The notes beneath the pieces are model-generated. The model saw nothing but the letters and a program-made list of their open reading frames with translations, was not told the DNA's origin and ran no database searches. Of a stretch of DNA of 25,825 nucleotides, positions 1,603-20,808 are shown piece after piece. Numbering within the stretch: position 1 is the first letter of the stretch; every line of letters starts with the position of its first letter. The position numbers were made by a program, and so were the translations under genes. This stretch comes from Acidobacteriota bacterium (GTDB lineage: Bacteria; Acidobacteriota; Terriglobia; Terriglobales; Acidobacteriaceae), in assembly GCA_021778815.1 (NCBI GenBank), contig JAJYBW010000002.1, forward strand, positions 1 to 25,825, given 5' to 3'.

Positions 1603-1620
1603 GGGTCAACATTATTTCTT

Positions 1621-1640: not shown

Positions 1641-1693
1641 AGGGATGCAAAATGCTGTGATCGCCGTCACGGGAGTTGCAAAGAATGCTTGGA

Positions 1694-2415: not shown

Positions 2416-2434
2416 GTATCTTTAAATTGTGTGA

Positions 2435-2448
2435 GAAAGAATGGTCGG
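2435..2448 (+). repeat. Left attachment-site core (14-bp direct repeat GAAAGAATGGTCGG)
   Basis: Exact match to 20725-20738, which spans the CCA end of tRNA-Pro. Followed by a degenerate T-arm mimic (GATTTTAGAACCTC versus GATTTGAACCTC in the tRNA). Confidence 0.8.
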
Positions 2449-2560
2449 CCCTAGTGGAAGATTTTAGAACCTCTCGTGCACTCGATGGCGAGAATATCGA
2501 CATTTACTTTACCGCTTCCGGGGATTCTTTTCACCGGTGAAACTTTCGATGATATTCCGC

Positions 2561-2900: not shown

Positions 2901-2982
2901 AAGAATATTCAATCGGGTGTTCCGAAAGACAGCGAACGGTGCCTAATAGACTAACCGCAAACAAACCTCGGGTCAGCGCGAA

Positions 2983-3308: not shown

Positions 3309-3356
3309 ACTTTGCTCCCAAGGAGTACCCGGAGACATTTCCCCGGATATTTACGC

Positions 3357-4033
3357 ATGGCGCTCAAGAAATCTGAATACACCTCGCTCTGGGCCAGTTG
3401 CGATGAACTTCGCGGCGGCATGGATGCCAGCCAGTACAAGGAGGGCGTCCTCGTCCTACTTTTCATCAAGTACGTCAGCGACAAATATGTCGACATCCGG
3501 TTTGCCCCCGTCACCATGCCTCCGGGTCGTCCTTCCGAGACATGGTCGCGCTCAAGGGCAATCCCGACATCGGCGGTCAGATCAACAAGAAGATCATCGC
3601 CACGCTGTAGAAAGCCAACAATCTCTCTGATTTCCCAGATTTCAACGAAGCCGCCAAACTCGGCAGCGGCAAGGAGATGGTGGATCGACTCACCAACATG
3701 GTCGCAATCTTTGACAATCCGGCGCTCGACTTCTCCAAGAACCGTGCCGATGGCGACGACATCCTTGGCGATGCCTACGAGTACCTGATGCGGCACTTCG
3801 CCACGGAGATCGATCGCAAGGGCCAGTTCTTCTATACCCCGGCAGAGGTCAGCCGCATCATGGCTCAGATTCTCGGCATCCGAACTGCTCGGGTTACCTC
3901 TTACACCACGGTGTATGACCCGACCTGCGGTTCGGGATCGCTTCTGCTCAAAGTGGCCGATGAGGCGACGGCCACGCCCACCCTCTGCGGGCAGGAGAAG
4001 GATGCTGCGACCAGCGCCTGGCCCGCATGAATA
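3357..4033 (+). pseudogene. hsdM: Type I restriction-modification methyltransferase subunit, degraded and truncated
   Basis: MALKKSE..SLWASCDELRGGMDASQYK, DILGDAYEYLMRHFATE, GQFFYTPAEVSRIMA, VYDPTCGSGSLLLK (SAM motif I), GQEKD. Frameshift near 3525, in-frame TAG at 3608-3610, frameshift near 4015. Homology ends at ARMN, before the NPP(Y/F) catalytic motif. Confidence 0.93.
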
Positions 4034-4329
4034 TCGACGGTATACGGATCGAAAGATTGATGCCACTCTTTGACCTGATCATCATCTAGACATGTGATTC
4101 TCCCTCTCGAGAATTTCTGGCGAAGCGGATGGCGTTTCCGGCGGAGCAAAATTATACAGCAACGGCACTTTATTGGTCCACATCGTCAGCGTTTTTCCTG
4201 CGCTCTTCGCAGCAGCCGTGGCGAGCCTTTTTTCCTCTGGAGACCGGCGATACGCCCTTCTCACTCCGTCATCGCAGGTGCCACAGCAGCCTATTTTCCG
4301 GGGATTTCTTGGACGCGAGATGCACCAAC

Positions 4330-5469
4330 CTATTTCCCGACCATTCCGGTGGCCGATTGATGTGCGTGTTGCAGATGCAGCACGTGTGGGATGGGGGGGG
4401 CGAATTCCCATGGCTCTTTTGCCGTAACGCCAAAGATAAATACCTGGCCCGGCCTATATCTCTGCCGGACTTCGAAATTTTCAAACGCCACACCGCCTGG
4501 AACTGGGTCGCGAGAGGCCCAATAGACACGCCGGCCATTCACCCTAACACGAAGATCCGGTTCGATGTCGTCCGCTGGAACCCTCCAATACTGTGTGAGC
4601 TTGGGAAGAAGGTAGCGCCAGTGCCCCGCTGCTGCGGTATCTAGAACCTTAGACGGGGATGATTCATTCGAAGTGCAAAGAGCGATGGCATCGCCATCGG
4701 AAGTCTGCAACATTTCATCCAGCGGGTAATTTTCATGTTCGATGAACGCGTCACCAGCGTAGGACGCGTAAAGCTTGCGACTGTCTACAACGCGGTCCTT
4801 GAGCCAGAGCCAGCGTAATCTCTCGTAATTTCCCATTGTTGCGGTCACCGTTAACTCTTCCACGGCCGGGCTGTCGTTATATTGGTACACTGCCAAACGA
4901 AGCTCATTGGGGTGGTCGCTGTCTATCGATGCCATCAGATATACGTGCGCGCCATTTGCCGCAAACCGCTCTACGTCGATCTGCACGGTGAGCCTTTCTA
5001 TTGGAGAGACACGGCTTGAGAAAGCGTGCAGGTTGCCGCGGAACCCATCAACCGAAGCTGTTTTAACAAGGTCTACCCACAACCGTTTGCCGCGAGACCC
5101 CGGATCCATAAGGCTTGGCTCCAACTCACTGAATGCCTGTCGGCTGGCGCGGCTACCAGCGCCAAACACCACAGGTTCAATCGCGATGAAATTCAGGAGA
5201 TCGGGTTTGCCGGTCTTCGCAGAAATCACGCCTACGCGGATGAGTCCGCGAGGCCCCGGCAATCCTCCTGGAGAGGGTATGCCAAAAACAATGCCATCCT
5301 TACGGCCCCAGATCAGCGGGTCACCCCGTTTATGAGGTCGAATCCACTCCGAATCTATATGACTTGTAACTTGGCCATACGCGCTGTGAGGCTCCAAAGC
5401 CGCGGATAGCAGGAACACCGCCGCGAGGAACAGGAGGCTCGCCGCCATCGAAAATCGGGCAATCGACAT
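4330..5469 (-). CDS. Uncharacterised secreted protein (379 aa), putative member of the sugar regulon
   Basis: Long ORF with signal peptide (MSIARFSMAASLLFLAAVFLLSAA...AYG|Q), rich in Trp/aromatic and beta-strand-like segments, divergent from lacI with an operator-like palindrome upstream. Confidence 0.85.
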   Translation of the reverse strand: MSIARFSMAASLLFLAAVFLLSAALEPHSAYGQVTSHIDSEWIRPHKRGDPLIWGRKDGIVFGIPSPGGLPGPRGLIRVGVISAKTGKPDLLNFIAIEPVVFGAGSRASRQAFSELEPSLMDPGSRGKRLWVDLVKTASVDGFRGNLHAFSSRVSPIERLTVQIDVERFAANGAHVYLMASIDSDHPNELRLAVYQYNDSPAVEELTVTATMGNYERLRWLWLKDRVVDSRKLYASYAGDAFIEHENYPLDEMLQTSDGDAIALCTSNESSPSKVLDTAAAGHWRYLLPKLTQYWRVPADDIEPDLRVRVNGRRVYWASRDPVPGGVAFENFEVRQRYRPGQVFIFGVTAKEPWEFAPPIPHVLHLQHAHQSATGMVGK

Positions 5470-5516
5470 ATGAGTCTCTTCGGATGATTGGCAGAATTTT
5501 AAAAACTTTGCTTGGA

Positions 5517-5554
5517 GTATTTAAACGGATCAACGATTTAATCGTTTAAAATAC
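5517..5554. promoter_or_regulatory. LacI-type operator region upstream of the secreted hypothetical gene
   Basis: TTAATCGTTTAA at 5538-5549 (TTAA-N-CG-N-TTAA with a LacI-style central CG), overlapping palindrome AACGATTTAATCGTT (5532-5546) and an extra half-site TTAAACG at 5521-5527. Confidence 0.6.
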
Positions 5555-5768
5555 TGTACACCACAAATCAGATCGACGTAGGCATTGCTAAATCATGCGA
5601 GCGAATTGAGATAAAAAACAGGCATTTGCCAAAGTTGAGGACAGATTATTCGCCGCTTGAAGTGATTGCGGCGTGAGATCAAAGTGCTCAGGCGGCTGTA
5701 AGATGAATCAGATTTCCTGCTCTAATCGCGCCTCTGGTTGTTTGTGAGGCCTGGGGGTTCACCCATCC

Positions 5769-6779
5769 ATGCCTTCTATCGTGGAAGTAGCAAAACGCGC
5801 TGGAGTATCGATCGCCACGGTTTCGAACGTGATCAGGGGAACCAAGCGTGTCAGCCCCGCTTTACAGGAGCGCGTTCAATTGGCCATTCGGGACTTGGAC
5901 TATTATCCGAATGAATTGGCGCGCAGTCTGAAGGTAAAGCAGACGCGAATGCTCGTCATGGTGCTCCCGGACATCACCAATCCTTTTTTCCCTGAGATCA
6001 TTCGGGGTGCTGAAGATTGCGCTTTTCAACGCGGCTATTTCTTGATGACGGCGAACACAGATGAGCAAATCGGGCGTGAGCGCAGAATCGTTTCGGCGCT
6101 CCGTTCCTATCGAGTCGATGGAATTCTGCTGGCTTCCGCGCCGGGAAAAGATATCAGCCATATTGAAAGCGTCCTACGGGCTGGATTATCAATCGTCTGC
6201 CTGGATAGAACTGTTTCCGGAATCGAGACCGACGCGGTGTTGTTGGACAACGTTCGGGGGGCACAAGAATGCGTGCGCCATCTGATCCAGGCCGGCTATC
6301 GTCGAATTGCAATCATCACCGGACCGTTAAAATTGCTGACCGGGCGCGAGCGCCTGCGCGGCTATGGGGACGCACTTCGAGAGGCAGACATAGAGCCTGA
6401 CCCCGCGTTGATTTTCGAGGGAGATTTCCGTGAAGACTCCGGCTATCGTTTGAGCAAAGAAATGCTGCGAAGACGCCGCAAGCCTTCCGCAATATTTGTT
6501 TGTAACGGCGTTATGACACTCGGCGTGTTGAAGGCGTTGGAAGAGACTGGCATGCTATGCCCGAATGATATTGCCTTGGCGACATTTGACGATTTGATGC
6601 TCGACCATTCTTTTCATCCCCACTTGACTACTGTCGTACAACCCAGTTATGAGATCGGCGCCCGTGCGGCGACCATCCTGATAGACCGTATCGAAGGCAA
6701 ATTGCCGAAGGAACCTCTCGTGGTGCGAATCGCGCCAACGCTTATCGTCCGCGAGTCTACAAGACCACGAAGGCCGTAG
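5769..6779 (+). CDS. LacI/GalR-family transcriptional regulator
   Basis: N-terminal HTH SIVEVAKRAGVSIATVSNVI, hinge YYPNELARSLK, PDITNPFF, periplasmic-binding-protein-like sensor domain, LTTVVQP. Confidence 0.97.
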   Translation: MPSIVEVAKRAGVSIATVSNVIRGTKRVSPALQERVQLAIRDLDYYPNELARSLKVKQTRMLVMVLPDITNPFFPEIIRGAEDCAFQRGYFLMTANTDEQIGRERRIVSALRSYRVDGILLASAPGKDISHIESVLRAGLSIVCLDRTVSGIETDAVLLDNVRGAQECVRHLIQAGYRRIAIITGPLKLLTGRERLRGYGDALREADIEPDPALIFEGDFREDSGYRLSKEMLRRRRKPSAIFVCNGVMTLGVLKALEETGMLCPNDIALATFDDLMLDHSFHPHLTTVVQPSYEIGARAATILIDRIEGKLPKEPLVVRIAPTLIVRESTRPRRP

Positions 6780-7035
6780 ATAGGTGCTGACTGTTCAGGC
6801 GCTCTGCTTGAATGTCAAGCCTGATAGTTGCCACAGCGCAGTGCCAGGATGCGTGGTGCCCTCAGAATAGGCTCCAGTCTAAGTTTCGTTTCCGTGCAAA
6901 TCGAACTACAGGATTCACAGGGTCGAAAGGATACGGGAATGCGAAATTTCCCTGGGGGCAGGATTCCATAGAATGCAATCAAAATCAAATGCCTTGACAA
7001 AGTGCGATTTTATATGGTCTTCTCATCCCGTTGTT

Positions 7036-7047
7036 TTAAACGTTTAA
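7036..7047. promoter_or_regulatory. LacI-type operator upstream of the TonB-dependent receptor
   Basis: Perfect 12-bp palindrome TTAAACGTTTAA ending 16 bp before the ATG at 7064; 11/12 identical to 5538-5549. Confidence 0.7.
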
Positions 7048-7063
7048 CATTCGGAGCGAATCG

Positions 7064-10000
7064 ATGAAAATAGTGACTGCAAAAATCTGGCCAGTTGTCG
7101 CTCTGTCCGTCATGCTGACGGTCTGGATATTTCCGAGCCTCACTTGGGCGCAGGCCTACCGTGGAGCGATCAAGGGCCAGGTGGAGGATCAGACGCATGC
7201 TGTTGTCGCTGGAGCGCAGGTTTCACTCAAAAATCAGGCCACAGGTGTGGTTTCGACGACCGTATCGGGTAAATCGGGCGAGTTCAGCTTCCTGAATCTC
7301 ATCGCCGGACACTACCGGCTCATCTCCACAATGCAAGGGTTTCAAACAAATATCCAGCAGGATCTTGCTGTGAATCTGGGAAGCACCGTTGCCGTGACCG
7401 TCATGCTCCAGGCAGGTGAGACCAAGCAGACCGTGACCGTTTCCGCAAACTCCGCCAGCGTTGAAAGCCAGACCTCGGAGATTGGCACGACTGTTACACC
7501 CCAGGAGATCAAGGATTTGCCGTTGCCGATGAGTGGCGACAGCAGAAACCCTCTAAGCTTTGTTCTTCTAACGCCTGGCGTTAGCGGTTCCGAGCCTGGG
7601 GCTACCCCGGACTACAGGCTGCATATCAGTGGTTCGGTCAGCGAAGCCGATCAGGTCTATATCGATGGCGTCCCGGTCTTGAATACAAACGAAATGGGGA
7701 ATCTGTCAACGGACCATCCCCCGCTCGATTCCATTTCAGCATTCAAAGTCATCACGAACAATCAGACCGCCGAATACGGTCTCGCCAGCGGAATCGTTTC
7801 CTTCGGATTCCGTTCAGGCACCAACGATCCGCATGGAAGCCTGTTTGAATATGTACAGAACTCCGCGCTCAATGCCGCCGGCTACGTGACAGATGCCCTT
7901 CATCAAAAGAAAGCTCCATTGAGCCAAAATGAATATGGTGGCACGTTCGGCGGCCCGGTGCGGATCCCGAAACTTTACGACGGCCGGAACAAAACTTTCT
8001 TCTTCGTGGACTATACCGGATTTAGGTACCGCCCAAGTTACAACAACGCGGCCCTGACAACGATTCCAAACGAGTATCGCACGGGAAACTTCTCCCAATC
8101 ACTCGGAACGCAATTGACGTCTGCTGGAGCACCAGTCTTTGATCCAGCAGGACGCCCAGTTTATAACGGTGAAATTTACGACCCGCTTTCCGCTCATACC
8201 GTAGTCGGGCCCGATGGGAAGGACTATGTTGTGCGCGATCCATTCCCTGGCAACATCATTCCGACAGGTCAGCCAGGATTAAGTACGGTATCGCAAACCA
8301 TCCTTAATAGCTTTCCGCAGGGCGATAACAACGCTCTCTTCGACAACCTTTTCCGCAATCAAGCTACCAAGACAGACGAACAACGCGTCGTTGTCAAAAT
8401 AAACGAAACTATCTCACCAAAACACTCGTTATACGGCAGTATTTTCATGGGTACTTTTACTACCTCCAATAATGGTGGCTTAAACGACTTAGATGCCAGC
8501 CTAACCACAGACCCGACGAAGCAATTCCGCGTGACCTACAACTACACGCCTTCCCAGCATGTGTTTAATAACCTCAATATTGGCTTTTTGCGGGACACCA
8601 GTTTTAACGGAACTCTACAGCCCGGACCAGGCCTCACTGCATTAGGTATACAAGGGCTGCCTCCGTTTGCGAGCAACAGCCCTTATCCATTGATCCAGAT
8701 GGGCACACTGACAAATAGTATCGGATCTACGAATGCATCGTCCGAAGCGCAAAACAGATTCTTCGAGGATGACAACCTGACACTGTTGCACGGCCGTCAT
8801 ATGTTTACTCTCGGCGGTGAGGTTCGGCGCTTGCAACGAAATGAGACGGGAATTCCCGGCGGTTCGTTCGATTTTGAACCCACAGAGTCAGGGCTCAATG
8901 GAACAGGATTTATCAATGGCACGCAAGCAATATCTATTCCATCTGGCACAGGAAACCCAGTGGCCAGTTTCCTATTTGGCGGTCTGGACTTTGCAAATGT
9001 AAGTTACCCGATTTCATCGGAATATCGCTGGCTCCAAACGGGCGTTTATTTCCAGGACGACTGGCAGGCTACCTCCGATCTTACTTTGAATCTTGGGATT
9101 CGTTATGACATCCAGGTTCCACGCACAGAAGTCCATGGTTACGCATCAACCATGGATCCAACCCTTCCAAATCCCGATGCAGGCAACCTACCCGGCGCAT
9201 ATACATACTACGGGAAAGGCAAGGGTCGCAATGGCATGGCCCGTATAGGCAAGACAGATTTTCTCGGACTTCAGCCAAGAATTGGCTTTGCCTACTCACC
9301 GGGAGACCATAAGACCGCTATCCGCGGAGGCTTCGCCATCAGCCGGCCGATTGGAAATGACAACATAGAGAACGGCATTAGCGGGACACTTTACAACACA
9401 GGCTTTTCTACTTTGGCGACAATTAATCGGCCTCAAGACTATGTTGGCTCGCCAGCCTATTATTGGGACAATCCTTTCCCGTCGTCATCCATCAGCGGAG
9501 TGGATCTCAATCCTGGAACCTTGGTTGGGAATGATAACCCCACCATGATCCATCCCTCCGCCGGCTTGCCTCCGACCCAGTTGTATTGGTCCGCGCAGGT
9601 GCAACAAGCGTTTCCTGGGAATATGGTGGCCAGTATCGGCTATGTTGGAATGCACACCTATCACTTGGGGATATGGTCCAAGCCAAACCAGATCAATCCC
9701 TTAGTTGCACAGCAATACAGTGCCGCCGCCGCCAAAGCAGGACTCCCCTTAAACGACTATTTGTCCCTTCCCGTCACTGATTCCAGGTCAGTGGTTGCCC
9801 CTCCGTGGTCTGGCTTTGTTTCTACATTCGGTTCGGGCGCGACCATTGGTCAGGCGTTGCGTCCTTGGCCACAATATGGCGATGTAGACAATCCATTCAA
9901 TCCTATCGGCAGCGTTACTTACAACGGCCTGCAAACAAGTTTGCAAAAGCGTATTTCGCGGGGACTTACTTTCCTAGTGTCATACACCTGGGAAAAAACT

Positions 10001-10783
10001 TTGGGTGATGTGGATTCAAATAGCGGTCCCAATGCTGGGGCGGAGAACGCGATTTACGCCGGCTCGTTCTTTCAGAACTATTACGACAGCAAGGCGGAAC
10101 GTTCCGTTACCAGTTCCGACATTCCACAAGTGCTATCTATCAGCTACACCTACCATCTTCCGATTGGAACGGGGCAGCGCTTCCTGAACCACACTGGCGT
10201 GGCTGGGAAGGTCTTGAGCGGCTGGGAAGTTTCTGGCATTCAGCAGTACCAGAGTGGGCGTCCGATCCATATTGAATACGATGCATTTGGAAGTTCGAAT
10301 CCCTATTTTGGCGGTGGCGACGGCTTCAGTTTCCGGCCTAACATCGTTCCTGGACAACCGCTGAAGAACCCGGCTTACCGCAGCAGTTGTTCCGGTCCCG
10401 TCCAATCCACTCCCGGCCGCAGCCCATGCCAGTTTTATATCAACCCGGCCGCCTTCTCGTTGCCGCCGTCTGGCGAGTTTGGCAACGCTCCCAATTTACT
10501 CGGCGGCTTGCGCATGCCACGCTTTTATGACGAGGACCTTTCCATCGCCAAGTCAACGGTGATTCACAACACGATGAATTTGCAAATCCAGGCAAATTTC
10601 TTCAATGCCTTCAATCGTACTGTGTTCTCTGATGGGGGCAACGCTCAAACATTTATCATCAATAATGCTCCACCCGATCTAAGTCCGGCTTCTTTGGCAA
10701 ACTCAAGTACGGTGTTCGGAATCATGTCGGCCCAACAAAACGGACCAAGGATCATACAATTCGGGGCGAGATTCGAGTTCTGA
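7064..10783 (+). CDS. TonB-dependent receptor (Oar-like, N-terminal carboxypeptidase-regulatory-like domain)
   Basis: 1239 aa; signal peptide; GAIKGQVEDQTHAVVAGAQVSLKNQATG; plug motif TAEYGLASG; YFQDDWQATSDLTLNLGIRYD; C-terminal beta-signal IIQFGARFEF. Confidence 0.95.
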   Translation: MKIVTAKIWPVVALSVMLTVWIFPSLTWAQAYRGAIKGQVEDQTHAVVAGAQVSLKNQATGVVSTTVSGKSGEFSFLNLIAGHYRLISTMQGFQTNIQQDLAVNLGSTVAVTVMLQAGETKQTVTVSANSASVESQTSEIGTTVTPQEIKDLPLPMSGDSRNPLSFVLLTPGVSGSEPGATPDYRLHISGSVSEADQVYIDGVPVLNTNEMGNLSTDHPPLDSISAFKVITNNQTAEYGLASGIVSFGFRSGTNDPHGSLFEYVQNSALNAAGYVTDALHQKKAPLSQNEYGGTFGGPVRIPKLYDGRNKTFFFVDYTGFRYRPSYNNAALTTIPNEYRTGNFSQSLGTQLTSAGAPVFDPAGRPVYNGEIYDPLSAHTVVGPDGKDYVVRDPFPGNIIPTGQPGLSTVSQTILNSFPQGDNNALFDNLFRNQATKTDEQRVVVKINETISPKHSLYGSIFMGTFTTSNNGGLNDLDASLTTDPTKQFRVTYNYTPSQHVFNNLNIGFLRDTSFNGTLQPGPGLTALGIQGLPPFASNSPYPLIQMGTLTNSIGSTNASSEAQNRFFEDDNLTLLHGRHMFTLGGEVRRLQRNETGIPGGSFDFEPTESGLNGTGFINGTQAISIPSGTGNPVASFLFGGLDFANVSYPISSEYRWLQTGVYFQDDWQATSDLTLNLGIRYDIQVPRTEVHGYASTMDPTLPNPDAGNLPGAYTYYGKGKGRNGMARIGKTDFLGLQPRIGFAYSPGDHKTAIRGGFAISRPIGNDNIENGISGTLYNTGFSTLATINRPQDYVGSPAYYWDNPFPSSSISGVDLNPGTLVGNDNPTMIHPSAGLPPTQLYWSAQVQQAFPGNMVASIGYVGMHTYHLGIWSKPNQINPLVAQQYSAAAAKAGLPLNDYLSLPVTDSRSVVAPPWSGFVSTFGSGATIGQALRPWPQYGDVDNPFNPIGSVTYNGLQTSLQKRISRGLTFLVSYTWEKTLGDVDSNSGPNAGAENAIYAGSFFQNYYDSKAERSVTSSDIPQVLSISYTYHLPIGTGQRFLNHTGVAGKVLSGWEVSGIQQYQSGRPIHIEYDAFGSSNPYFGGGDGFSFRPNIVPGQPLKNPAYRSSCSGPVQSTPGRSPCQFYINPAAFSLPPSGEFGNAPNLLGGLRMPRFYDEDLSIAKSTVIHNTMNLQIQANFFNAFNRTVFSDGGNAQTFIINNAPPDLSPASLANSSTVFGIMSAQQNGPRIIQFGARFEF

Positions 10784-10792
10784 GCTGTGACC

Positions 10793-12205
10793 ATGCTTCC
10801 CACAATCGTGTTCTTTTTAAGTGCGGCACCTCTTTTACTTGGCCAAACGCCCAACGGCACTCTTCAGATGCACGCTCAGGCGGCACAGCAAGCGGAGCTG
10901 CGAAAGGACTTCCCGGCAGCAGTGCGGGAATATGAGGCGTTGGCCAAGCTACTGCCAAATAGCGCGGAGGTTCAGAGCAATTTAGGCGTGGCGCTCTATT
11001 TTGAAAATGACAAGCGTAGAGCCATTCAAGCCTTTCATAAAGCACTCGGCTTGGATTCGACGCTATTTGTGCCTCACTTGTTTTGCGGGCTAGCTTGGTA
11101 CAAGCTTTCGAATCCGGATGCTGCAGTGCCCGAGTTAGAAAGGGCAGTGCAGCTCAATGGAGCCGATGCCATAGCTCACACTTGGCTGGGTTATGCCTAT
11201 ATTGCGCAGTTTCGATACCGGAAGGCGATCGCGGAGTTACAGACCGCAGGGCAAATCGATTCTGGCAATATCGACATCTGGTATGCACTTGGTCAGGCTT
11301 ATACAGAAGCTGGAAGTGAAGCCACTGCGAAGCTGCTTAAGGTCGCGCCGAATGCCGGCCGCGTGTGGCAACTCGCGGGCGAACAAGCGCAATTGCAGGG
11401 GGACCGCCCCAAGGCCCTTGAATTGTTTGAAGGTGCGTACCAGCGCCGTCCAGACCTCACAGAATTACGCCCACTGATTGCCAAGCTTGGGGGGACCGCG
11501 ACCGCTGCTTCAAGCTCGCCTGCAGTGAAGGATCGACAAGAAGATGGACTTTACAAGGTAGCCCACAACGATGAGCAACAGGCGCGCGCTGCTTTCCAAA
11601 AAGTGATTGAGATTGCTCCGGATTCCTACCGTGCTCACCAGATTATGGCGGAGGCATATAGTGCCGAACAGCATTACGGAAAATCCAACGAAGAATATGA
11701 AAAGGTTGTAGCTCTAAAGCCGGATCTGCCAGGCATTCATGAAGCAATGGGAAAAAATCTGGTTCGCGCCGGAAAGCTCCAGGAAGCGTTAAGTGAGTTC
11801 CACGTTGAGCTCCAGAGTCAGCCAGACTCTTCAATGGCATACATGAATGTCGGAAACGCGTTGCTGTTGATGCAACATGACAATGAGGCAGAGAAAATGT
11901 TGCGCCAATCCCTTCAACTGGATCGGCCTCCTTCAGAGACTTACAAGCTTTTGGGGAAGATCGATCTGACTCGCCGAAACTATAGCGGAGCAATCGAAAT
12001 GCTTACAAAATATATTGGTTTGGCTCCGGGCGATTCGGATGGATATTACATGTTAAGTCGTGCCTATCGGGCTATAGGCAACAAATCGGAGATGACTCGC
12101 ATGCTCGGTCTATACAAGAGCACATCCGACCTATACAAGGACACCCCCCAAGCTACGAAATCCGGCGACGGCACAGGAAGTGCCCTACCTGATTTGAAGA
12201 AATAA
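10793..12205 (+). CDS. Secreted tetratricopeptide-repeat protein
   Basis: Signal peptide MLPTIVFFLSAAPLLLG|Q, then many TPR units (AEVQSNLGVALY, IAHTWLGYAY, YRAHQIMAEAY, AYMNVGNALL). An alternative GTG start exists at 10787. Confidence 0.92.
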   Translation: MLPTIVFFLSAAPLLLGQTPNGTLQMHAQAAQQAELRKDFPAAVREYEALAKLLPNSAEVQSNLGVALYFENDKRRAIQAFHKALGLDSTLFVPHLFCGLAWYKLSNPDAAVPELERAVQLNGADAIAHTWLGYAYIAQFRYRKAIAELQTAGQIDSGNIDIWYALGQAYTEAGSEATAKLLKVAPNAGRVWQLAGEQAQLQGDRPKALELFEGAYQRRPDLTELRPLIAKLGGTATAASSSPAVKDRQEDGLYKVAHNDEQQARAAFQKVIEIAPDSYRAHQIMAEAYSAEQHYGKSNEEYEKVVALKPDLPGIHEAMGKNLVRAGKLQEALSEFHVELQSQPDSSMAYMNVGNALLLMQHDNEAEKMLRQSLQLDRPPSETYKLLGKIDLTRRNYSGAIEMLTKYIGLAPGDSDGYYMLSRAYRAIGNKSEMTRMLGLYKSTSDLYKDTPQATKSGDGTGSALPDLKK

Positions 12206-12222
12206 AGGAGCGATTTGCTGCT

Positions 12223-13833
12223 GTGAATGAAGCAATCCTAGTCACGAGCGGAGATCTGCGCCAGTCCGCCAACCGAGCGTGCTGGCCGGCGCAGGAAGAT
12301 CTGGAGCGCAGGCTCATGCAATGTTTTCACGATGAGGGAGTTTCGGTGCGCCGCGCTTTTCCCGTCGACCCGCATCTGAGGCATGGTTTCATCTCCGGTC
12401 AGCGCATGGGGATGGATGTTTTTGCTACGATTCCGCCGGAATCAAACCTGATATTTGCGACGGCTGCATGGCAGTACAGCCATCATGTGCTGCCGGGACT
12501 GCGCTTCCATCGCGGGCCGATTCTCACGGTGGCGAATTGGTCTGGGCAATGGCCAGGCCTCGTGGGGCTGCTGAATCTTAATGGCTCCCTGGTCAAGGCC
12601 GGAGTCCCGTTCAGCACCATCTGGAGCCAGAGCTTCTCGGACGAGTACTTTCTCAATGGGATCCGGGAGTGGATCAGGAGCAAGCGTATTTCCCATGACG
12701 CAGGTCATGTGCGGGATCTCGATATCAGTGCGCTTCCAGATGCCGCAGTTTGTTTAGGGCATCAACTCGCGGATACTCTCAAGCGCCGGAAGGCGATTCT
12801 CGGCATCTTCGACGAGGGATGTATGGGGATGTACAACGCCATCATCGACGATGAACCCTTGAATGCCTTGGGAGTCTTCAAGGAGCGCCTGAGCCAGTCC
12901 GCGCTGGTGGCAAAAATGCGCACCGTACATGAAGGAGAGACCCTCAAGGTGCGGCAATGGCTGGAGGGCAGGGGCCTGCGGTTCGTGACCGGGAAGGACG
13001 CGCAGTCTGAACTGACGGATACGCAGATCCTTGAACAATGCAGGATGTACATTGCCGCAGTGCGCATCGCACACGAATTCGGTTGCGACGCGATTGGCAT
13101 TCAGTACCAGCAAGGCCTGAAGGAGATGGTTCCGGCATCAGACCTGGTGGAAGGGCTGCTGAATAATGCAGACCGTCCGCCGGTGTTCGACGAGCACTCC
13201 GGTAAGGAACTCTATGCAGGCGGGCCGCTGCCCCACTTCAACGAGGTGGACGAGTGTGCCGGGCTCGATGCTCTGGTGACAAACCGCTGCTGGACAGCAC
13301 TCGAACTCGATCCCGCAACAACGCTGCACGATGTGCGTTGGGGGGAGCATTACAAGGGCGAAGGGGTGGACGATTTTGTGTGGGTGCTTCAAATATCGGG
13401 AGCTGCGCCCGCCAGCCATTTCGTCGATGGGTATCGTGGAGCTTCGAGCGAGCGTCAACCGCCAATGTATTTTCCCCTGGGCGGGGGAACCCTCAAAGGT
13501 GTTGGCAGACCAGGGGAGATTGTGTGGAGTCGCGTTTTCGTGGAGGGTGGAGCCCTACACGCCGACATTGGGCGTGGCGCTGTGGTCGAGCTTCCAGGGG
13601 AGGAAGTTGACCGCCGCTGGAAGCATACGACCCCACAATGGCCCATGGTCAGCGCGGTTTTCCCTGGAATTTCGCGCGACGCTTTCATGGCTCGCCATCG
13701 CGCTAACCACGTCAATATCGCGTATGCGTCCGATGCGGATACGGCCAACAAGGCGCTCGCTGTAAAAGCTGCAATGTTCGACTCACTGGGCGTGAGGGTG
13801 CACCTCTGCGGCCCGGCTGGTTTAGGGAAATGA
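12223..13833 (+). CDS. L-fucose/arabinose isomerase-family sugar isomerase (cytoplasmic)
   Basis: LGIFDEGCMGMYNA, VFKERLSQSAL, GCDAIGIQYQQG, PHFNEVD, TTLHD, C-terminal HRANHVNIAY; GTG start with AAGGAG RBS; no signal peptide. Confidence 0.85.
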   Translation: MNEAILVTSGDLRQSANRACWPAQEDLERRLMQCFHDEGVSVRRAFPVDPHLRHGFISGQRMGMDVFATIPPESNLIFATAAWQYSHHVLPGLRFHRGPILTVANWSGQWPGLVGLLNLNGSLVKAGVPFSTIWSQSFSDEYFLNGIREWIRSKRISHDAGHVRDLDISALPDAAVCLGHQLADTLKRRKAILGIFDEGCMGMYNAIIDDEPLNALGVFKERLSQSALVAKMRTVHEGETLKVRQWLEGRGLRFVTGKDAQSELTDTQILEQCRMYIAAVRIAHEFGCDAIGIQYQQGLKEMVPASDLVEGLLNNADRPPVFDEHSGKELYAGGPLPHFNEVDECAGLDALVTNRCWTALELDPATTLHDVRWGEHYKGEGVDDFVWVLQISGAAPASHFVDGYRGASSERQPPMYFPLGGGTLKGVGRPGEIVWSRVFVEGGALHADIGRGAVVELPGEEVDRRWKHTTPQWPMVSAVFPGISRDAFMARHRANHVNIAYASDADTANKALAVKAAMFDSLGVRVHLCGPAGLGK

Positions 13834-13870
13834 GAGTGAGACGAGCGATCTCTCTGGCGGGAGCCTGTCG

Positions 13871-15460
13871 ATGAGCTTGGTTGCGGGCGTCGACTTTGGA
13901 ACGTTGAGCGTTCGGGTGTCTATATTCGACAGCCGAAAAGGCCGCATATCATCCGGGGTGGCGGAATACCCGCTGAACCGTTCCGCCCAGGATCCTAACC
14001 TCGCAACCCAGAGCCATGTCAAACAGATGGAGGCGCTCGAGCGCGCCATGCGGCGTGCGCTTGCTTCGGGAAATGTGGATGGGAGTGAAGTCAGGGCCTT
14101 GGCGTGCGATACCACCGGTTCCAGTGTCATTCTGGTGGGAGCAGAACTTGAACCGCTCGACGATTACTACTTGTGGTGTGACCATCGCGCCTGGCGAGAG
14201 GCGCGAGAGATAACGGCCGCTGCACACGCGCAAAAGCTTGAAGCGATCGAGTGGTGCGGCGGCACCTATTCTTCGGAATGGGGATTTTCAAAGCTCCTGC
14301 ATTGGCTACGCCACAACCCCGAAAAGCGCGACCGCCTGGTGACGGCCATGGAAAATTGCGACATGGTTGTCGCGACCCTTTGCGGCATCACGCTGGCAGC
14401 CGACGTGCCGCGTAGCATCTGCGCCATGGGCCACAAATGGATGTGGAATCCGAAATGGGGCGGTCTGCCGTCACAGGAATTTCTTACCTCCGTCGATCCG
14501 CTGTTCGCAGGCATTTGCGAGAAGCTCTCCGGACGCTATGAAAGCTCGGATAGGATCGCGGGAAGGCTCAGTGCTGCGTGGGCAAAGCGGCTCGGATTGC
14601 GAGCCGGTATTCCTATCCCTGTTGGAGCGCTCGACGCCCATTGGGACGCGATTGCGGCGAACATTCGGCTGGGAGACGTGGTGAATGTCATCGGGACTTC
14701 CACCTGCATTATCGGAGTAAGCGCGCAACAAGCCCTGGTGCCAGGAGTGTGCGGCGTCGTACCCGGTTCGGTGCTGCCGGAATACGTCGGCATTGAAGCG
14801 GGATTGTCGGCCGTTGGCGACCTGTTTGATGGCATCGCCCGTCGGGCAGCAATGGATGCGCCCACCTTAAGCCAAGGGCTGGATTCGTATCGCGCCGGAC
14901 AGACCGGATTGTTGCGCATGGTGTGGGACAACGGCGATCGAACGGTGCTGGTCAATCCAAACCTGGGGGGCGTCACGCTGGGGTGGAACATTTTGAGCAC
15001 TGCGCAGGATGAACTGTTCGCGGCCATCGAAGGGACCGCGCTCCACACCCGCATCATTCTGGAACGCATGGGGAAAAAGGGCGCGCCGGTCGAGCGAGTG
15101 ATTAATGGCGGTGGTATTCCCCAGAAAAGCGCTGTGCTGAACCAGGTGTACGCGAACGCGCTGAACAAGCCGGTATTGGTTCCCTTTGGCGACGTAACCA
15201 GCCTCGGCTCGGCAATCTTCGCATTTCTCGCAGCCGGAGAATTTGCGTCTGTCGAAGAAGCGCAGGATGCACTCTGTCCTCCGCACCGAACCTTTCTGCC
15301 CGACGCGCGCGAGGCGGAGACCTACGACCGGCTATATTTACTTTTTAACGAATTGTATTTCTCTCTGGGAGCGCCGCACAGCTCTGCTGTGCGCATCGGA
15401 CACATACTGCCGTCATTGCGTGAAATCGCCTTCAAGTTACAGGAACTCGAGCCCCGATGA
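13871..15460 (+). CDS. FGGY-family carbohydrate kinase, ribulokinase-like
   Basis: GVDFGTLSVR phosphate motif, ACDTTGSS, LWCDHRA, YSSEWGFSK, GALDAHWDA, IGTSTC, INGGGIPQK. Confidence 0.92.
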   Translation: MSLVAGVDFGTLSVRVSIFDSRKGRISSGVAEYPLNRSAQDPNLATQSHVKQMEALERAMRRALASGNVDGSEVRALACDTTGSSVILVGAELEPLDDYYLWCDHRAWREAREITAAAHAQKLEAIEWCGGTYSSEWGFSKLLHWLRHNPEKRDRLVTAMENCDMVVATLCGITLAADVPRSICAMGHKWMWNPKWGGLPSQEFLTSVDPLFAGICEKLSGRYESSDRIAGRLSAAWAKRLGLRAGIPIPVGALDAHWDAIAANIRLGDVVNVIGTSTCIIGVSAQQALVPGVCGVVPGSVLPEYVGIEAGLSAVGDLFDGIARRAAMDAPTLSQGLDSYRAGQTGLLRMVWDNGDRTVLVNPNLGGVTLGWNILSTAQDELFAAIEGTALHTRIILERMGKKGAPVERVINGGGIPQKSAVLNQVYANALNKPVLVPFGDVTSLGSAIFAFLAAGEFASVEEAQDALCPPHRTFLPDAREAETYDRLYLLFNELYFSLGAPHSSAVRIGHILPSLREIAFKLQELEPR

Positions 15461-16785
15461 CCATCAACTCGCACGTCATAAAGAGTACTGCCGTCGGCGC
15501 ACTCGGCGGACTGCTTTTCGGATTTGATACGGCAGTCATTTCGGGAACCACGCATGCATTGACGGTGACATATCACCTTTCGCCCGCATTGCTCGGCGTG
15601 ACTGTTTCCAGTGCTCTGGTCGGCACCGTAATCGCCGCGATGACCGCCGGCATTCCCGGGCAAAAATTTGGCCGGCGCGACAGTCTTCGCGTGATGGCGA
15701 TGTTCTATGTGGTTTCGGCGCTGGGCTGCGCCTTTGCATGGAACTGGCCTGCGCTTATATTCTTTCGATTTATGGGCGGCATCGGGATTGGTGGCTCATC
15801 CGTGCTCGGTCCCATGTACATCGCAGAAATTGCCCCCGCCGAGTGGCGGGGCAGGGTGGTAGGGGTTTTCCAGGTCAACATTGTCGTCGGCATCTTGCTG
15901 GCGTACCTGTCGAATTTTTTCCTTCGCAGTCTGCATCTTGGAGTCAATACATGGCGCTGGCAGCTTGGCATCTCCGCAATCCCAGCCGTCCTTTTTCTGG
16001 TTGCATTGTTTGGCATTGCGCGCAGCCCGCGATGGCTGGCAACCCAGGCCAAGCTGGTGGAAGCGATGGATGTGCTGCGCCTGACCGGCATGCCGGAACC
16101 GGAAAAAGAACTGGAAGAGATTGTCGCCTCCATTCATCTGGAGCGGTCGGTCCGCGCCGAGCCGCTGTTCTCCAGGAAATACCGCCGGCCGGTCTTCCTC
16201 GCTATTACTGTGGGGATGTTCTGCCAGCTCTCGGGGATCAACGCAATTCTTTATTATCTGAACGATATTTTCTCTCTGGCAGGAGCATCTCAGATTTCGG
16301 GCGATCTGCAGGCTGTGGCCGTGGGCGCGACAAATCTGGTGGCAACGCTACTCGCGATGGCGGTGATCGATAAAATCGGCCGCCGGAAGCTATTACTGGG
16401 AGGGACCGTCGGTTTGACGGCGGCCCTGACAGCCATTGCTCTCATCTTCTTGACCCGCAGTCATTTTGGATGGTTGCTCTGGCTGCTGATGGCGTATATC
16501 GCCTGCTTCGCCGTCTCTCAGGGGGCGGTGCTATGGGTCTACATCAGCGAGGTATTTCCCACCACGGTGCGCTCCAAAGGTCAAAGTCTGGGCAGTTCTT
16601 CCCACTGGGTGACAAATGCGCTGATCTCTCTCGTTTTTCCATTAATGGCGAAGTCATCGGGAGCATCCCCGTTCATATTTTTCGCAGCGATGATGGTAAT
16701 CGATTTCTTCATGGTGCTGTTTTACTACCCCGAAACGAGCGGCATCTCTCTGGAACAGATGCAGCACAATTTCGGCATCGACTAA
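15457..16785 (+). CDS. Sugar porter family MFS transporter (XylE/AraE-like)
   Basis: ALGGLLFGFDTAVISG, KFGRR loop, PMYIAEIAP..RG, QLSGINAILYY, IDKIGRRKLL, WVYISEVFP, PETSG; 12-TM pattern; ATGA overlap with the kinase. Confidence 0.97.
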   Translation: MTINSHVIKSTAVGALGGLLFGFDTAVISGTTHALTVTYHLSPALLGVTVSSALVGTVIAAMTAGIPGQKFGRRDSLRVMAMFYVVSALGCAFAWNWPALIFFRFMGGIGIGGSSVLGPMYIAEIAPAEWRGRVVGVFQVNIVVGILLAYLSNFFLRSLHLGVNTWRWQLGISAIPAVLFLVALFGIARSPRWLATQAKLVEAMDVLRLTGMPEPEKELEEIVASIHLERSVRAEPLFSRKYRRPVFLAITVGMFCQLSGINAILYYLNDIFSLAGASQISGDLQAVAVGATNLVATLLAMAVIDKIGRRKLLLGGTVGLTAALTAIALIFLTRSHFGWLLWLLMAYIACFAVSQGAVLWVYISEVFPTTVRSKGQSLGSSSHWVTNALISLVFPLMAKSSGASPFIFFAAMMVIDFFMVLFYYPETSGISLEQMQHNFGID

Positions 16786-16800
16786 ACCAGTCAAAACTGT

Positions 16801-16825
16801 CGGCGGCGCGAAGCTTGCGCTGCCG
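16801..16825 (+). other. Intercistronic GC-rich hairpin without a U-tract
   Basis: CGGCGGCGCG-AAGCT-TGCGCTGCCG: 10-bp stem with two G-U pairs and a 5-nt loop. Confidence 0.45.
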
Positions 16826-16899
16826 CAAGCCTCAACAGCAGGGTTCGGCTGAGTTCACCCGCAACACAGATTTTTTATCGTTCGCAATGGAGGACGTTT

Positions 16900-18066
16900 A
16901 TGAAGCGACTTGCCGTTGTCATCTCGATCATTGTAGGTATTACTGGCAGCGCATATGCGCAAAGTGCAAGCTGGCAGCCCGATCTGACCCGGCAGCAGAC
17001 CTATGTCCAACATCGCGCCTCCAGTTCCGATCCCACTGGCACCAATGCGGACTTCCGTGTGGTTGCTCCTGGCGCGACGTTGACGGTACTGGACGTCGAC
17101 GGTCCGGGCACCATCTCCCATATGTGGTTCACGATCAACGACGGTGAATCATACAACCTCAAGCGTATTGTCCTGCGCATGTATTGGGATGGAGAGCAGT
17201 CTCCAAGTGTCGAGACGCCTATCGGAGACTTTTTCGGCCTCGGGCTTGGGTACTACTACAACTGGCACTCCGAATTGCTCTCGGTGGGCAGCGTCCAGGC
17301 TTTGAACTGTTTTTTCCCGATGCCATTTCGGCACCATGCGCGCATTACGATTACGAACCAAGGGAAGCAGCCCATCGGCAGCTTTTACTACAACATCGAT
17401 TACCGCACGTATTCGCATCCACTCCCACCAGACAGTCTGTATTTTCACGCCGAGTACCGGCAGGCGCAGCCGAACCATGGCTGGACCGACAAGTGGGAGA
17501 CTAACCAGGATCCTCTGGTGAACGACAAGGCGAACCTCTACGGCAAAGGCAATTATGTATGGCTGGACGCCAAAGGCCACGGGCAATTCGTGGGCGTGAC
17601 CATGTCCGTGTTGCAGAACCAGGACATGTGGTGGGGCGAGGGCGACGACATGTTCTTCATCGATGGCGCAAGACGGCCATCCATAGCCGGAACCGGTACT
17701 GAGGACTATTTCCTCGGAGCATGGGATTTCGGTGGCAAGCCCTTCTCGTATCCGCTGTACGGAGCTCCGGTGGTAGGCAAAGAGGTTGCCGGGAGTCGGT
17801 CCAGCGTCTACCGTTTTCATCTCGATTCGCCGATCCCGTTCACGAAATCCATCCAGGCCACCATCGAGCATGGCAACGCGAACGATCGCTCCGACAACTA
17901 TTATTCCGTAGCATACTGGTATCAAGCCGAGCCGCATGAGCCGTTTCCTCCATTACCGCCTGTGGACCAAAGGCTGCCCCGGTTACAGTGCGTGGGTGGT
18001 CCCGGAAATAGTCATGGCCTGAACGACTCCAATTCCTATACCGGCATCTCTCAACATCCGCAGTAA
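16900..18066 (+). CDS. Secreted glycoside hydrolase family 172 (DUF2961) protein; candidate alpha-D-arabinofuranosidase / alpha-D-fructofuranosidase
   Basis: Signal peptide (…GSAYA|Q); DGPGTISHMWFT, LRMYWDGE..PSVETPIGDFFG, NCFFPMPF, YFHAEYRQ, WWGEGDDMFFIDG and GTGTEDYF (both candidate catalytic Glu present), YRFHLDSPIPF, TIEHG; GGAGG RBS. Confidence 0.93.
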   Translation: MKRLAVVISIIVGITGSAYAQSASWQPDLTRQQTYVQHRASSSDPTGTNADFRVVAPGATLTVLDVDGPGTISHMWFTINDGESYNLKRIVLRMYWDGEQSPSVETPIGDFFGLGLGYYYNWHSELLSVGSVQALNCFFPMPFRHHARITITNQGKQPIGSFYYNIDYRTYSHPLPPDSLYFHAEYRQAQPNHGWTDKWETNQDPLVNDKANLYGKGNYVWLDAKGHGQFVGVTMSVLQNQDMWWGEGDDMFFIDGARRPSIAGTGTEDYFLGAWDFGGKPFSYPLYGAPVVGKEVAGSRSSVYRFHLDSPIPFTKSIQATIEHGNANDRSDNYYSVAYWYQAEPHEPFPPLPPVDQRLPRLQCVGGPGNSHGLNDSNSYTGISQHPQ

Positions 18067-18156
18067 ACCTTGGCGGGAGCTTCGATCATCGCGAGGAGCG
18101 TGCGCCCGTCGAATGATCACTGGGGGAATAGTTCTGGGGCAGGATGGAGGCAGTTC

Positions 18157-18279
18157 ATGAACATGCGTACGATGTTTCTGGCTTCGCTGATTTTCTCCGG
18201 TTGCCGCCTCTGTGCCACCACTCGGTTACAGGCCCCGAACGGTTCGATACGCTTGGATGTGAACATCGGGAGATTTCTA
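18157..18279 (+). pseudogene. 5' stub of a secreted protein (possibly GH97-like N-terminus), truncated
   Basis: GGAGG RBS then MNMRTMFLASLIFSGCRLCA|TTRLQAPNGSIRLDVNIGRF; interrupted at the IS630 target TA. The GH97 resemblance (LxSPDG...) is weak. Confidence 0.45.
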
Positions 18280-19305
18280 GAGCAGTTTCTGAAATAGCGT
18301 AGACTCATCCTGGCGAGACTCTGCGGCGAGTGAATCGATGGCGAAGCCATATGGGGATGATTTGCGCCGTAAGTTTCTGTTTGCTTACGATCAGGGCGAG
18401 GAGACGCTGGAGGAACTTGCGGATCGCTTCCTGGTAAGCGTGGGCTGGGCGAAGAAGATTTCCGCGCAACGGAAGCGCACCGGACAAGCTGAGCGGGTGC
18501 CGCATCGGCCCGGACGTAAATTGCGGGCCGGAACCGAGGCACAGCGTCAGGTGATGGATTGGGTGGCATCGAAGCCCGATCTGACGCTGGCCCAACTACA
18601 GGCCAGGTTGTACAGCGAGGCTGGCGTTTCGCTCAGTTTGGGGCGGATCTGGCATCTGTTGAAGAAGCTGGGGCTGCGGCTGAAAAAAAGTCACTCCACG
18701 CAGTCGAGCGGGACACCGAGGCCAACCTCAAGCGTCGTGAAGAGTTCGTTGCGCGCATCCAGTCGATCCCGCCGGAGCGGCTGATTTTTCTGGACGAGAG
18801 CGGCATCACTACCTCAATGACGCGGCTCTACGCGCGCGGCACGGGAGGCAAACGCATTCATGAGGCGACCCCTGGCGGACACTGGAAAATCATGACGATT
18901 CTGGGCGCCATGAGCCTGAACGGCATGGTCGCAACCATGACCATCGAAGAGCCCACCGACAGGGACATCTTTCTGGCCTACGTCGAACATCTGCTGGTCC
19001 CGGTCCTGAGGCCCGGCGACGTGGTGGTCATGGACAACCTCAGTGCGCACAAGGCACCTGCGGTTCGCACATGGATCGAACAAGCCGGTGCCGAGCTGCT
19101 CTATCTCCCGCCCTATTCTCCCGATCTGAACCCTATCGAGAAGGCTTGGGCAAAACTCAAACAACTGCTTCGCACCGCCAAGGCACGAACGAAAGAAACC
19201 CTCGATCAGGCCATCGCTGATGCTCTGCCATGCATCACGCCCGCCAATGCACAAGCTTGGTTCAGACTCCCCATCAACGGTTTTACAGTAAAACAGAAAA
19301 TGCTC
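18280..19305 (+). mobile_element. IS630-family insertion sequence (~1.03 kb), inserted at CTAG with TA duplication
   Basis: TA at 18278-79 and 19306-07. Terminal inverted repeats TAGAGCAGTTTCTG (18278-18291) and CAGAAAATGCTCTA (19294-19307) match at 13/14. Confidence 0.92.
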
Positions 19306-19308
19306 TAG
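18338..19308 (+). CDS. IS630 transposase, HTH and DDE ORFs joined by a -1 frameshift at A7G (18683-18690), ~323 aa fused
   Basis: ORF A ends RLKK; the -1 frame continues [42 protein letters not shown] (D-D-E triad). Confidence 0.92.
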
Positions 19309-19312
19309 CTGC

Positions 19313-20808
<1,496 letters not shown>

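Follow-up and report, generated by a model that had tools for sequence, protein, structure and literature searches.

D-arabinan is a major wall polymer of the Corynebacteriales and related soil actinobacteria, and D-arabinofuranose is the rare form of arabinose found in cell walls of the mycobacterial type. Few soil bacteria are as abundant, or as little cultured, as the Acidobacteriaceae. Escherichia coli uses D-arabinose through its fucose enzymes, K-12 with FucI, FucK, FucA and AldA and E. coli B with FucI and a D-ribulokinase. Enzymes that degrade D-arabinan were identified only in 2023, in one gut species of Bacteroidota and in a Microbacterium. A glycoside hydrolase of family GH172 acting together with an isomerase and a kinase on D-arabinose was proposed in the same year (Shimokawa 2023, PMC10509167; Al-Jourani 2023, PMC10115798). 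In Microbacterium arabinogalactanolyticum, a locus induced by D-arabinose contains a homologue of a GH172 exo-alpha-D-arabinofuranosidase with a putative isomerase and kinase, which would convert D-arabinose to D-ribulose-5-phosphate (PMC10509167). In Dysgonomonas gadei growing on D-arabinan, no carbohydrate-active protein was more abundant than the predicted fucose isomerase of locus PUL42, and DgGH172c releases D-arabinose from arabinogalactan (PMC10115798). Here we analysed a 25,825-bp stretch of DNA from an acidobacterium of the family Acidobacteriaceae (the window hereafter; assembly GCA_021778815.1, contig JAJYBW010000002.1, positions 1 to 25,825, forward strand). It carries, on an integrative island, a six-gene operon for a TonB-dependent outer-membrane receptor (TBDR), a tetratricopeptide-repeat (TPR) protein, an isomerase, a kinase, a major facilitator superfamily (MFS) sugar porter and a GH172 glycosidase. 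Gene association indicates that this is probably a LacI-repressed operon for the uptake and catabolism of alpha-D-arabinofuranosyl oligosaccharides and D-arabinose.

The window resembles the Microbacterium locus (PMC10509167) in having GH172, isomerase and kinase genes together. The Gram-positive locus, however, encodes an ATP-binding cassette (ABC) importer, intracellular GH172 and GH116 enzymes and four GH183 endo-arabinanases, whereas the window encodes a TBDR with a TPR protein, a periplasmic GH172 and an MFS porter, its GH116 lying elsewhere in the genome and not in the island; the window GH172, moreover, has its near relatives in the alphaFFase1/DgGH172c clade (1e-64 to 1e-72), with Microbacterium ExoMA1 much more distant (2.7e-37). 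PUL42 of D. gadei (PMC10115798) is likewise Gram-negative, with a TonB-dependent importer and D-arabinose-releasing GH172 enzymes, and DgGH172c is a close structural relative of the window enzyme. PUL42 differs in its Bacteroidota SusC/SusD pair, three GH172 enzymes, GH183 endo-enzymes and GH116, where the window has a TPR protein in place of SusD, a single GH172 and a LacI repressor, and where the isomerase scores below the Pfam cut-offs for FucI. Like the E. coli route, the window joins an isomerase to a pentulose kinase (a sibling island in the congener G013 has a K-12-like set), but the kinase is an AraB-type 5-kinase, the isomerase is divergent, and glycosidase, receptor and porter are added. 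Two features are common to the window and the araBAD operon, a kinase of the AraB type (NF003154) and an aldose-ketose isomerase from one superfamily; neither AraA (PF02610) nor AraD is encoded in the window.

A literature search found no paper joining GH172, DUF2961 or D-arabinan with Acidobacteria. An earlier note on this DNA, made from the sequence alone, had been aware of no description of such a system there; this agrees with our search for Acidobacteria, but the kind of locus had already been proposed in the two 2023 papers. The phylum is new for this kind of locus, and the window stands out by the divergent isomerase clade, the TBDR-TPR importer, the captured AraB paralogue and the demonstrated island with its sibling islands.

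On the reading that we favour, the TBDR with its secreted TPR partner would bring short glycans into the periplasm, GH172 would clip off terminal alpha-D-arabinofuranose, and the MFS porter would take D-arabinose into the cell. The divergent FucI-superfamily isomerase would then make D-ribulose and the AraB-type kinase paralogue D-ribulose-5-phosphate, which would enter the pentose-phosphate pathway directly, while LacI would bind TTAAWCGTTTAA sites at both promoters. The food is likely to be D-arabinan fragments of actinobacterial cell walls. The island itself encodes an exo-enzyme alone, and the endo-enzymes may therefore have to come from genes elsewhere or from other organisms.

Gene content and conservation of the operon

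We scanned the window proteins against Pfam and NCBIfam, with Pfam gathering scores and NCBIfam curated scores as cut-offs. The results showed that the six operon genes (Table 1) are co-directional and tightly packed, with intergenic gaps of 3, 17, 37, -4 and 114 bp, the porter start overlapping the kinase stop by 4 bp. The earlier note's six-gene run on the plus strand was borne out for every gene in both position and family. Sec signal peptides are present on GH172 (ending AYA, followed by Q), the TBDR and the TPR protein. The TPR protein has no SusD domain in Pfam and no lipobox Cys in its signal peptide, so the gene downstream of the TBDR differs from the SusD-family lipoprotein gene of Bacteroidota SusC/SusD-type systems. 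TBDR orthologues 57-69% identical occupy the same position in five genera, and the TBDR-TPR pair is kept in L002, L018, L029, G135, G102, G070 and G137 (G, C and L designate genomes, contigs and loci). A promoter and terminator scan gave matches at chance level (11 against 8.5 and 13 against 13.9).

The full gene order, from the secreted protein upstream of LacI through TBDR, TPR protein, isomerase, kinase and porter to GH172, recurs on the chromosome in L002, L018 and G135, and variants occur in G102, G070, G062, G078, G109, G137 and G129, the last with five GH172 genes. The encoded proteins are 53-87% identical in other Acidobacteriaceae genera (L002, L018, L120/G135, L128/G102 and L122/G070). 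Because the same order recurs in other genera, the arrangement is not due to chance. Some of the orthologous operons have a GH31 gene between the TPR and isomerase genes (L120 9115-11790 in G135, L018, and L123/L139 in G137).

We surveyed one genome from each of 120 Acidobacteriaceae genera. AraA was found in 11, the isomerase in 20, GH172 in 46 and AraD in 56. GH172 was present in 17 of the 20 isomerase-positive genomes, compared with 29 of the other 100, and the two genes lie no more than 20 kb apart in 8 of the 17 genomes that have both.

Other D-arabinan enzyme families also accompany the isomerase. In Alloacidobacterium dinghuense (L001), the isomerase adjoins a GH116 gene whose product matches the exo-beta-D-arabinofuranosidase ExoMA2 at 1e-134, compared with 1e-22 for beta-glucosidases. 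Directly ahead of its orthologous GH172, the operon of G137 encodes a DUF4185/GH183 protein (47.5 bits, cut-off 39.5), and GH183 is weakly present in G135. On contig C19 of G106 (L140 2066-11900), a TBDR, a GH183, a FucI-like isomerase, an FGGY kinase and an ABC sugar transporter are encoded co-directionally; the GH183 scores 60.9 bits for DUF4185, with two EndoMA1 endo-D-arabinanase entries as its best matches in the PDB, and the 506-amino-acid (aa) isomerase is 35% identical to that of the window. This locus is a candidate for a second type of D-arabinan locus in the Acidobacteriaceae. Six Chloroflexota loci and G070 have a FucU/RbsD-like gene together with the isomerase.

Isomerase and kinase

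The isomerase falls short of the Pfam cut-offs for Fucose_iso_C (PF02952; 26.4 against 29.3) and Fucose_iso_N1 (PF07881; 22.6 against 28) and has no match to Fucose_iso_N2 (PF07882), nor did we find an NCBIfam match or, by sequence search, a relative in the PDB. Its predicted structure (mean confidence, pLDDT, 94.9) was compared with the PDB by Foldseek. The best match was 3a9r, the D-arabinose isomerase of Bacillus pallidus (9.5e-22), followed by L-fucose isomerases at about 1e-21; 3a9r, 4c20, 6k1f and 1fui all scored 1e-21 to 1e-22, against 1e-16 to 1e-12 for AraA. A profile of the isomerase family matched 3a9r alone in the PDB (1.3e-5). The modelled fold and the profile are thus closer to D-arabinose/L-fucose isomerase than to L-arabinose isomerase. 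The L-fucose isomerase implied in the earlier note does not hold in the family sense, since both Pfam cut-offs were failed and identity to FucI structures is 14-17%. The enzyme probably converts D-arabinose to D-ribulose.

The isomerase has more than 8000 close homologues, of which those named are from Acidobacteriaceae, in agreement with the acidobacterium-like host proposed earlier. At least 597 further places in species genomes carry it, including Chloroflexota at 65-70% identity, and the family occurs in Actinomycetota according to the Atlas. In the isomerase tree, the G129 (L118) and G137 (L123) copies nest among Chloroflexota sequences, and contig L040, labelled Acetobacteraceae, nests among Acidobacteriaceae. 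The cross-phylum identity of 65-70% suggests transfers or, for L040, mis-binning.

The kinase passes the ribulokinase model NF003154 (Table 1) and stays below the cut-offs of TIGR01234 (317 against 583) and of TIGR01315, which contains D-ribulokinase (156 against 409). It is 64-65% identical to an AraD-linked AraB elsewhere in the host genome. The isomerase-linked kinases of G135 and G102 are 79-80% identical to the window kinase, compared with 62-68% for AraD-linked kinases, and a second, isomerase-linked kinase was found only in G135, G102 and the present genome. By its association with the isomerase, the kinase would convert D-ribulose to D-ribulose-5-phosphate. Because the isomerase is paired with a C5 ribulokinase, a pentose would fit better than a 6-deoxyhexose as the substrate.

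GH172 enzyme

The window GH172 matches PF11175 (DUF2961) with 281.7 bits against a cut-off of 27 over profile positions 1-235. Its PDB matches are alphaFFase1 (2.7e-72), BACUNI_00161 (1e-70), DgGH172c (1.1e-64) and ExoMA1 (2.7e-37). We aligned it by HMMER with alphaFFase1, whose catalytic pair and -1 subsite have been assigned (PMC8605356). The results showed that the counterparts of W267, E270, T288, E291, D292, W298 and Y187' are all kept, including the nucleophile and acid/base glutamates (E291 and E270) and every -1-subsite residue; the calcium ligand N272 is Asp in the window enzyme. The insertions that bear the +1-subsite residues E85 and K147 are absent. In alphaFFase1, E85 and K147 are required for inulobiose and not for p-nitrophenyl-alpha-D-arabinofuranoside (PMC8605356, Table 2), and their loss therefore argues against a difructose-dianhydride enzyme. 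In length and architecture the window protein is like the short-form DgGH172c. These features suggest that it is an exo-alpha-D-arabinofuranosidase.

Regulation and the divergent secreted protein

The operator pattern TTAAWCGTTTAA has two matches in the window, against 0.10 expected, one at each promoter. In nine orthologous loci (L018, L002, L120, L029, L128, L122, L125, L107 and L040), a site, exact or with one mismatch, immediately precedes the gene for the receptor or the isomerase, and the sites of orthologous loci make up nearly all of the 20 matches in 1.78 Mb of fetched DNA. LacI reaches no NCBIfam equivalog cut-off; its orthologues, with 65-87% identity, adjoin the same operon in other genera. 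LacI and the shared operator are predicted to control both the operon and the divergent gene.

The divergent gene encodes a secreted protein of 379 aa with no Pfam family match and 1149 homologues, every one named hypothetical. The family is conserved beside LacI or GH172 genes in six loci (including L002, L029, G135, G070 and G078). An AlphaFold model of the protein (pLDDT 83) has a galactose-mutarotase-like beta-supersandwich fold; Foldseek found nothing significant for it in the PDB, and VIA-align gave Z 11-14 to GalM, GH174, OpgD (GH186) and PL26, a likeness of fold class only. The model makes this protein a candidate glycan-active or sugar-binding partner. GH174, GH186 (OpgD) and some lyases share the supersandwich fold predicted for it.

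Integrative island and host genome

By reading both ends of the island, we found a 14-nt direct repeat (Table 1). In the same-genus genomes G001, G006 and G015, DNA homologous to about 2200-2448 runs directly into the homologue of position 20725 onward, and the flanks overlap at these empty sites by exactly the 14 repeat nucleotides. Window positions 2449-20724 (18,276 bp) are therefore an insertion, an integrative island at a tRNA-Pro/purL site; tRNA-Pro stands beside purL also in G001, G006, G015 and G013. The G+C content of the island is 54.5%, compared with 58.1% in the flanks and 57.0% in the genome, and the flanking purL is 92-93% identical to its nearest relatives, whereas for the island GH172 identity to the enzymes of the genus reaches only 72-83%. 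The mobile island and its horizontal acquisition, as earlier proposed, are thus upheld by the empty sites, the repeat and a serine recombinase.

The island was most likely inserted at the 3' end of tRNA-Pro(CGG) by its large serine recombinase. The recombinase may still be active in excision or integration, but the IS630 insertion and a reading frame that ends inside the tRNA gene call for caution. The last 23 codons of the recombinase are read from the complement of the tRNA-Pro gene, the reading frame crossing the att core, so the C-terminus depends on the integrated state; this tail matches the empty sites, which include the tRNA, with 100% identity. A search for related recombinases yielded them in the same genus only (4 of 24 genomes) and not in the orthologous operon loci of other genera.

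At the left flank, window 1267-2425 holds open reading frames (ORFs) without Pfam match between an efflux-protein gene and the left att site. Relatives keep the part at 2193-2448 next to their tRNA-Pro gene. The efflux gene was seen in only 4 of 20 genomes of the genus, and there away from purL, which makes the left flank variable as well.

The host is known from a metagenome-assembled genome (MAG) of an uncultured soil bacterium (3.26 Mb, 437 contigs, 72.8% complete). Its contig C19 has a second, native isomerase-porter pair among housekeeping genes, with 77% identity. In the isomerase tree, the island copy groups with the sequence of a metagenome contig (88% identical, support 100) and is separate from the native one. 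This rules out a duplicate of the native gene and, as judged from the tree, the island isomerase is an acquired xenologue from another Acidobacteriaceae lineage. Contig C9 of the MAG (L112 5211-11965) encodes a GH31-like protein, AraD (323 bits against a cut-off of 257), a sodium-solute symporter and a second AraB, with no isomerase. Contig C207 (L014 959-5404) encodes a FucU/RbsD-like protein, a 912-aa GH116 (1e-137 to ExoMA2) and a cobW-family GTPase; in A. dinghuense, this GH116-cobW pair comes after the isomerase gene. The island most likely gives the host a consolidated second copy beside the native isomerase-porter pair, the AraB/AraD cluster and the ExoMA2-like GH116.

Table 1. Features of the window, the operon first (positions counted from the first nucleotide of the window)
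Feature	Position	Strand	Remarks
TBDR, N-terminal carboxypeptidase-regulatory-like domain	7064..10783	+	CarboxypepD_reg, Plug, OMP_b-brl_4 (582.9 bits); signal peptide
TPR protein, secreted	10787..12205	+	Pfam: TPR families only; signal peptide
Isomerase, divergent FucI/AraA-superfamily clade	12223..13833	+	weak Fucose_iso_C/N1 matches below Pfam cut-offs
FGGY kinase, AraB-type ribulokinase paralogue	13871..15460	+	NF003154, 505.4 bits against cut-off 428
MFS sugar porter	15457..16785	+	Sugar_tr 345.7 bits; TIGR00879 338.7 against cut-off 237.8
GH172 glycosidase, periplasmic or secreted	16900..18066	+	DUF2961 281.7 bits; Sec signal peptide
LacI-family repressor	5769..6779	+	LacI HTH and Peripla_BP_3/1
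Secreted 379-aa protein, unnamed Acidobacteriaceae family	4330..5469	-	divergent from lacI; no Pfam match
Operator-like palindrome TTAATCGTTTAA, LacI-type	5538..5549		69 bp upstream of divergent secreted-protein gene
Operator-like palindrome TTAAACGTTTAA	7036..7047		17 bp upstream of receptor start codon
Left 14-nt direct repeat GAAAGAATGGTCGG (attL core)	2435..2448		same 14-mer at 20725-20738
Right 14-nt direct repeat GAAAGAATGGTCGG (attR core)	20725..20738		overlaps 3' end of tRNA-Pro
hsdM remnant, type I restriction-modification methylase, frameshifted, island left end	3312..4030	+	HsdM_N in ORF 3312-3788, N6_Mtase in ORF 3677-4030, different frames
IS630-type insertion sequence	18338..19308	+	HTH and DDE_3 parts in two frames
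Large serine recombinase, tRNA-proximal island end	19313..20797	+	Resolvase, Recombinase, Zn_ribbon_recom domains
tRNA-Pro (CGG), integration target	20732..20808	-	ARAGORN

Sibling islands in a congener

The congener G013 has a related element of about 15.8 kb on contig C12 (L141 3775-19518), at the same tRNA-Pro/purL site and sharing both ends with the window island. It carries an aquaporin-like gene, cobW, an ExoMA2-like GH116, a FucU-like gene and a GH32/LamG-like gene, together with an FGGY kinase, a porter, a GH27-like gene, a class II aldolase and a truncated recombinase. On contig C11 of the same genome (L142, L143), a full-length recombinase (82-84% identity) stands beside tRNA-Pro(TGG) with the same core sequence; across the G013 tRNA-Pro genes, the recombinase relatives span 78-84% identity. 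The L142 cargo after the recombinase comprises a class II aldolase, a RhaB-like kinase, the isomerase (65% identity), AldA (808 bits against a cut-off of 500) and two GH172-like genes. By analogy, its isomerase, 1-kinase, aldolase and AldA form a route of the fucose/D-arabinose type.

Alternative explanations

After the comparative tests, a three-step D-arabinose route remains the best-fitting reading, but the earlier note's description of it as self-contained, feeding the host on arabinogalactan or lipoarabinomannan, overreaches: the island has an exo-enzyme only, and neither a GH183 endo-arabinanase nor a GH116 is encoded in it. Further points weigh against D-arabinose. GH183 (PF13810) was not found in the 72.8%-complete MAG. 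Most isomerase copies, such as those of Terracidiphilus and Chloroflexota, stand away from any GH172, and the GH31 genes of the orthologous operons have no evident role in D-arabinan breakdown. The window GH172 falls in the alphaFFase1/DgGH172c clade, which includes an enzyme with a preference for alpha-D-fructofuranosides. The kinase is AraB-type by family, the isomerase co-occurs with AraD in 18 of 20 genomes, and AraD and AraB are encoded on C9 while canonical AraA (PF02610) was found neither in the MAG nor in G144, a complete genome of the same genus, so that the isomerase could in principle serve L-arabinose.

The last three points also speak for an L-arabinose module, which we consider unlikely. 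Here the isomerase would be a non-orthologous replacement of AraA, the kinase would be a second L-ribulokinase, the C9 AraD would epimerise L-ribulose-5-phosphate, and GH172 would act on some L-arabinose-bearing or unrelated glycoside. The pass of NF003154 and the lack of an isomerase in the araD-symporter-araB cluster of C9 agree with this. The earlier note had argued from the absence of AraD and FucA, which is true of the locus only: araD stands on C9 beside the second AraB-type kinase, and the argument from the missing AraD is weak because these two could complete an L-arabinose route in trans. A GH51 alpha-L-arabinofuranosidase gene lies 4 kb from the isomerase in L001, but in only this one of about 100 loci.

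The phyletic pattern and gene adjacency, however, mostly reject the isomerase as a simple replacement of AraA. The isomerase is near AraD in 0 of 18 genomes, while AraA, as a control, adjoins AraD in 5 of 11. Among the 56 AraD-positive genomes, 3 have AraA and the isomerase, 8 AraA only, 15 the isomerase only and 30 neither. There is thus no anticorrelation, and with 30 genomes having neither, many Acidobacteriaceae must in any case have an L-arabinose isomerase of some other kind. Because most isomerase-positive genomes have no other ribulokinase, dependence on the AraB linked to AraD would account for the co-occurrence with AraD just as well. The modelled fold and the profile closer to FucI/D-arabinose isomerase, the G013 isomerase in an aldolase/AldA route that is not one used for L-arabinose, and the action of all characterised GH172 enzymes on D-furanosides also argue against L-arabinose.

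About as improbable is a different sugar, either one with the FucI-type configuration or a furanoside not yet described (L-fucose, L-galactose and bacterial exopolysaccharide sugars are examples), with a GH172 of unreported specificity. In its favour, the uncharacterised isomerase family has only a distant relationship to FucI, the GH31 genes of the orthologous operons and the 379-aa secreted protein do not fit known D-arabinan loci, and the G013 isomerase route would suit L-fucose too. Against this, an AraB-type 5-kinase suits a pentulose rather than a 6-deoxyhexulose, none of the families seen around the isomerase was a fucosidase family, and the three CAZy families known for D-arabinan, GH172, GH116 (subfamily 4-like) and GH183, all associate with it.

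Very unlikely, finally, is an alpha-D-fructofuranoside locus acting on soil fructan derivatives (difructose dianhydride I or inulobiose) like alphaFFase1 of Bifidobacterium dentium: this enzyme is the best PDB match of the window GH172, and the -1 subsite, identical in both, accommodates Fruf and Araf, but the difructose dianhydride idea is rejected on the missing +1-subsite loops (E85/K147), the DgGH172c-like length and architecture, and an operon without GH32 and fructokinase, whose aldose-ketose isomerase and pentulose kinase would serve no purpose for fructose.

Significance

Use of D-arabinofuranosides and D-arabinose thus remains our preferred function for the operon. A wider reading is possible, though we regard it as rather doubtful: tRNA-Pro-targeting serine-recombinase islands of one genus may carry alternative D-arabinofuranoside modules between genomes. 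These modules would be GH172 with the AraB-type kinase in the window, GH116 with the FucU-like gene in G013 at the same attB, and the isomerase, RhaB-like kinase, aldolase, AldA and GH172-like genes at the second tRNA-Pro of G013. The regulon would then add a new D-arabinose isomerase family and the 379-aa secreted protein, possibly a new glycan-active enzyme that replaces the missing endo-arabinanase, and feeding on cell-wall D-arabinan would be widespread and mobile in soil Acidobacteria.

Known biochemistry is unchanged by the locus, and its significance is ecological and enzymological rather than conceptual. The demonstrated island and its siblings with related cargo show that such sugar modules move between close relatives. 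If the D-arabinose reading is true, the locus would be a source of new exo-D-arabinofuranosidases, and possibly of a new D-arabinose isomerase family, and would offer concrete substrates to try for cultivation. With GH172 in 46 and the isomerase in 20 of the 120 genera, the Acidobacteriaceae would then be regular consumers of the D-arabinan of actinobacterial necromass.

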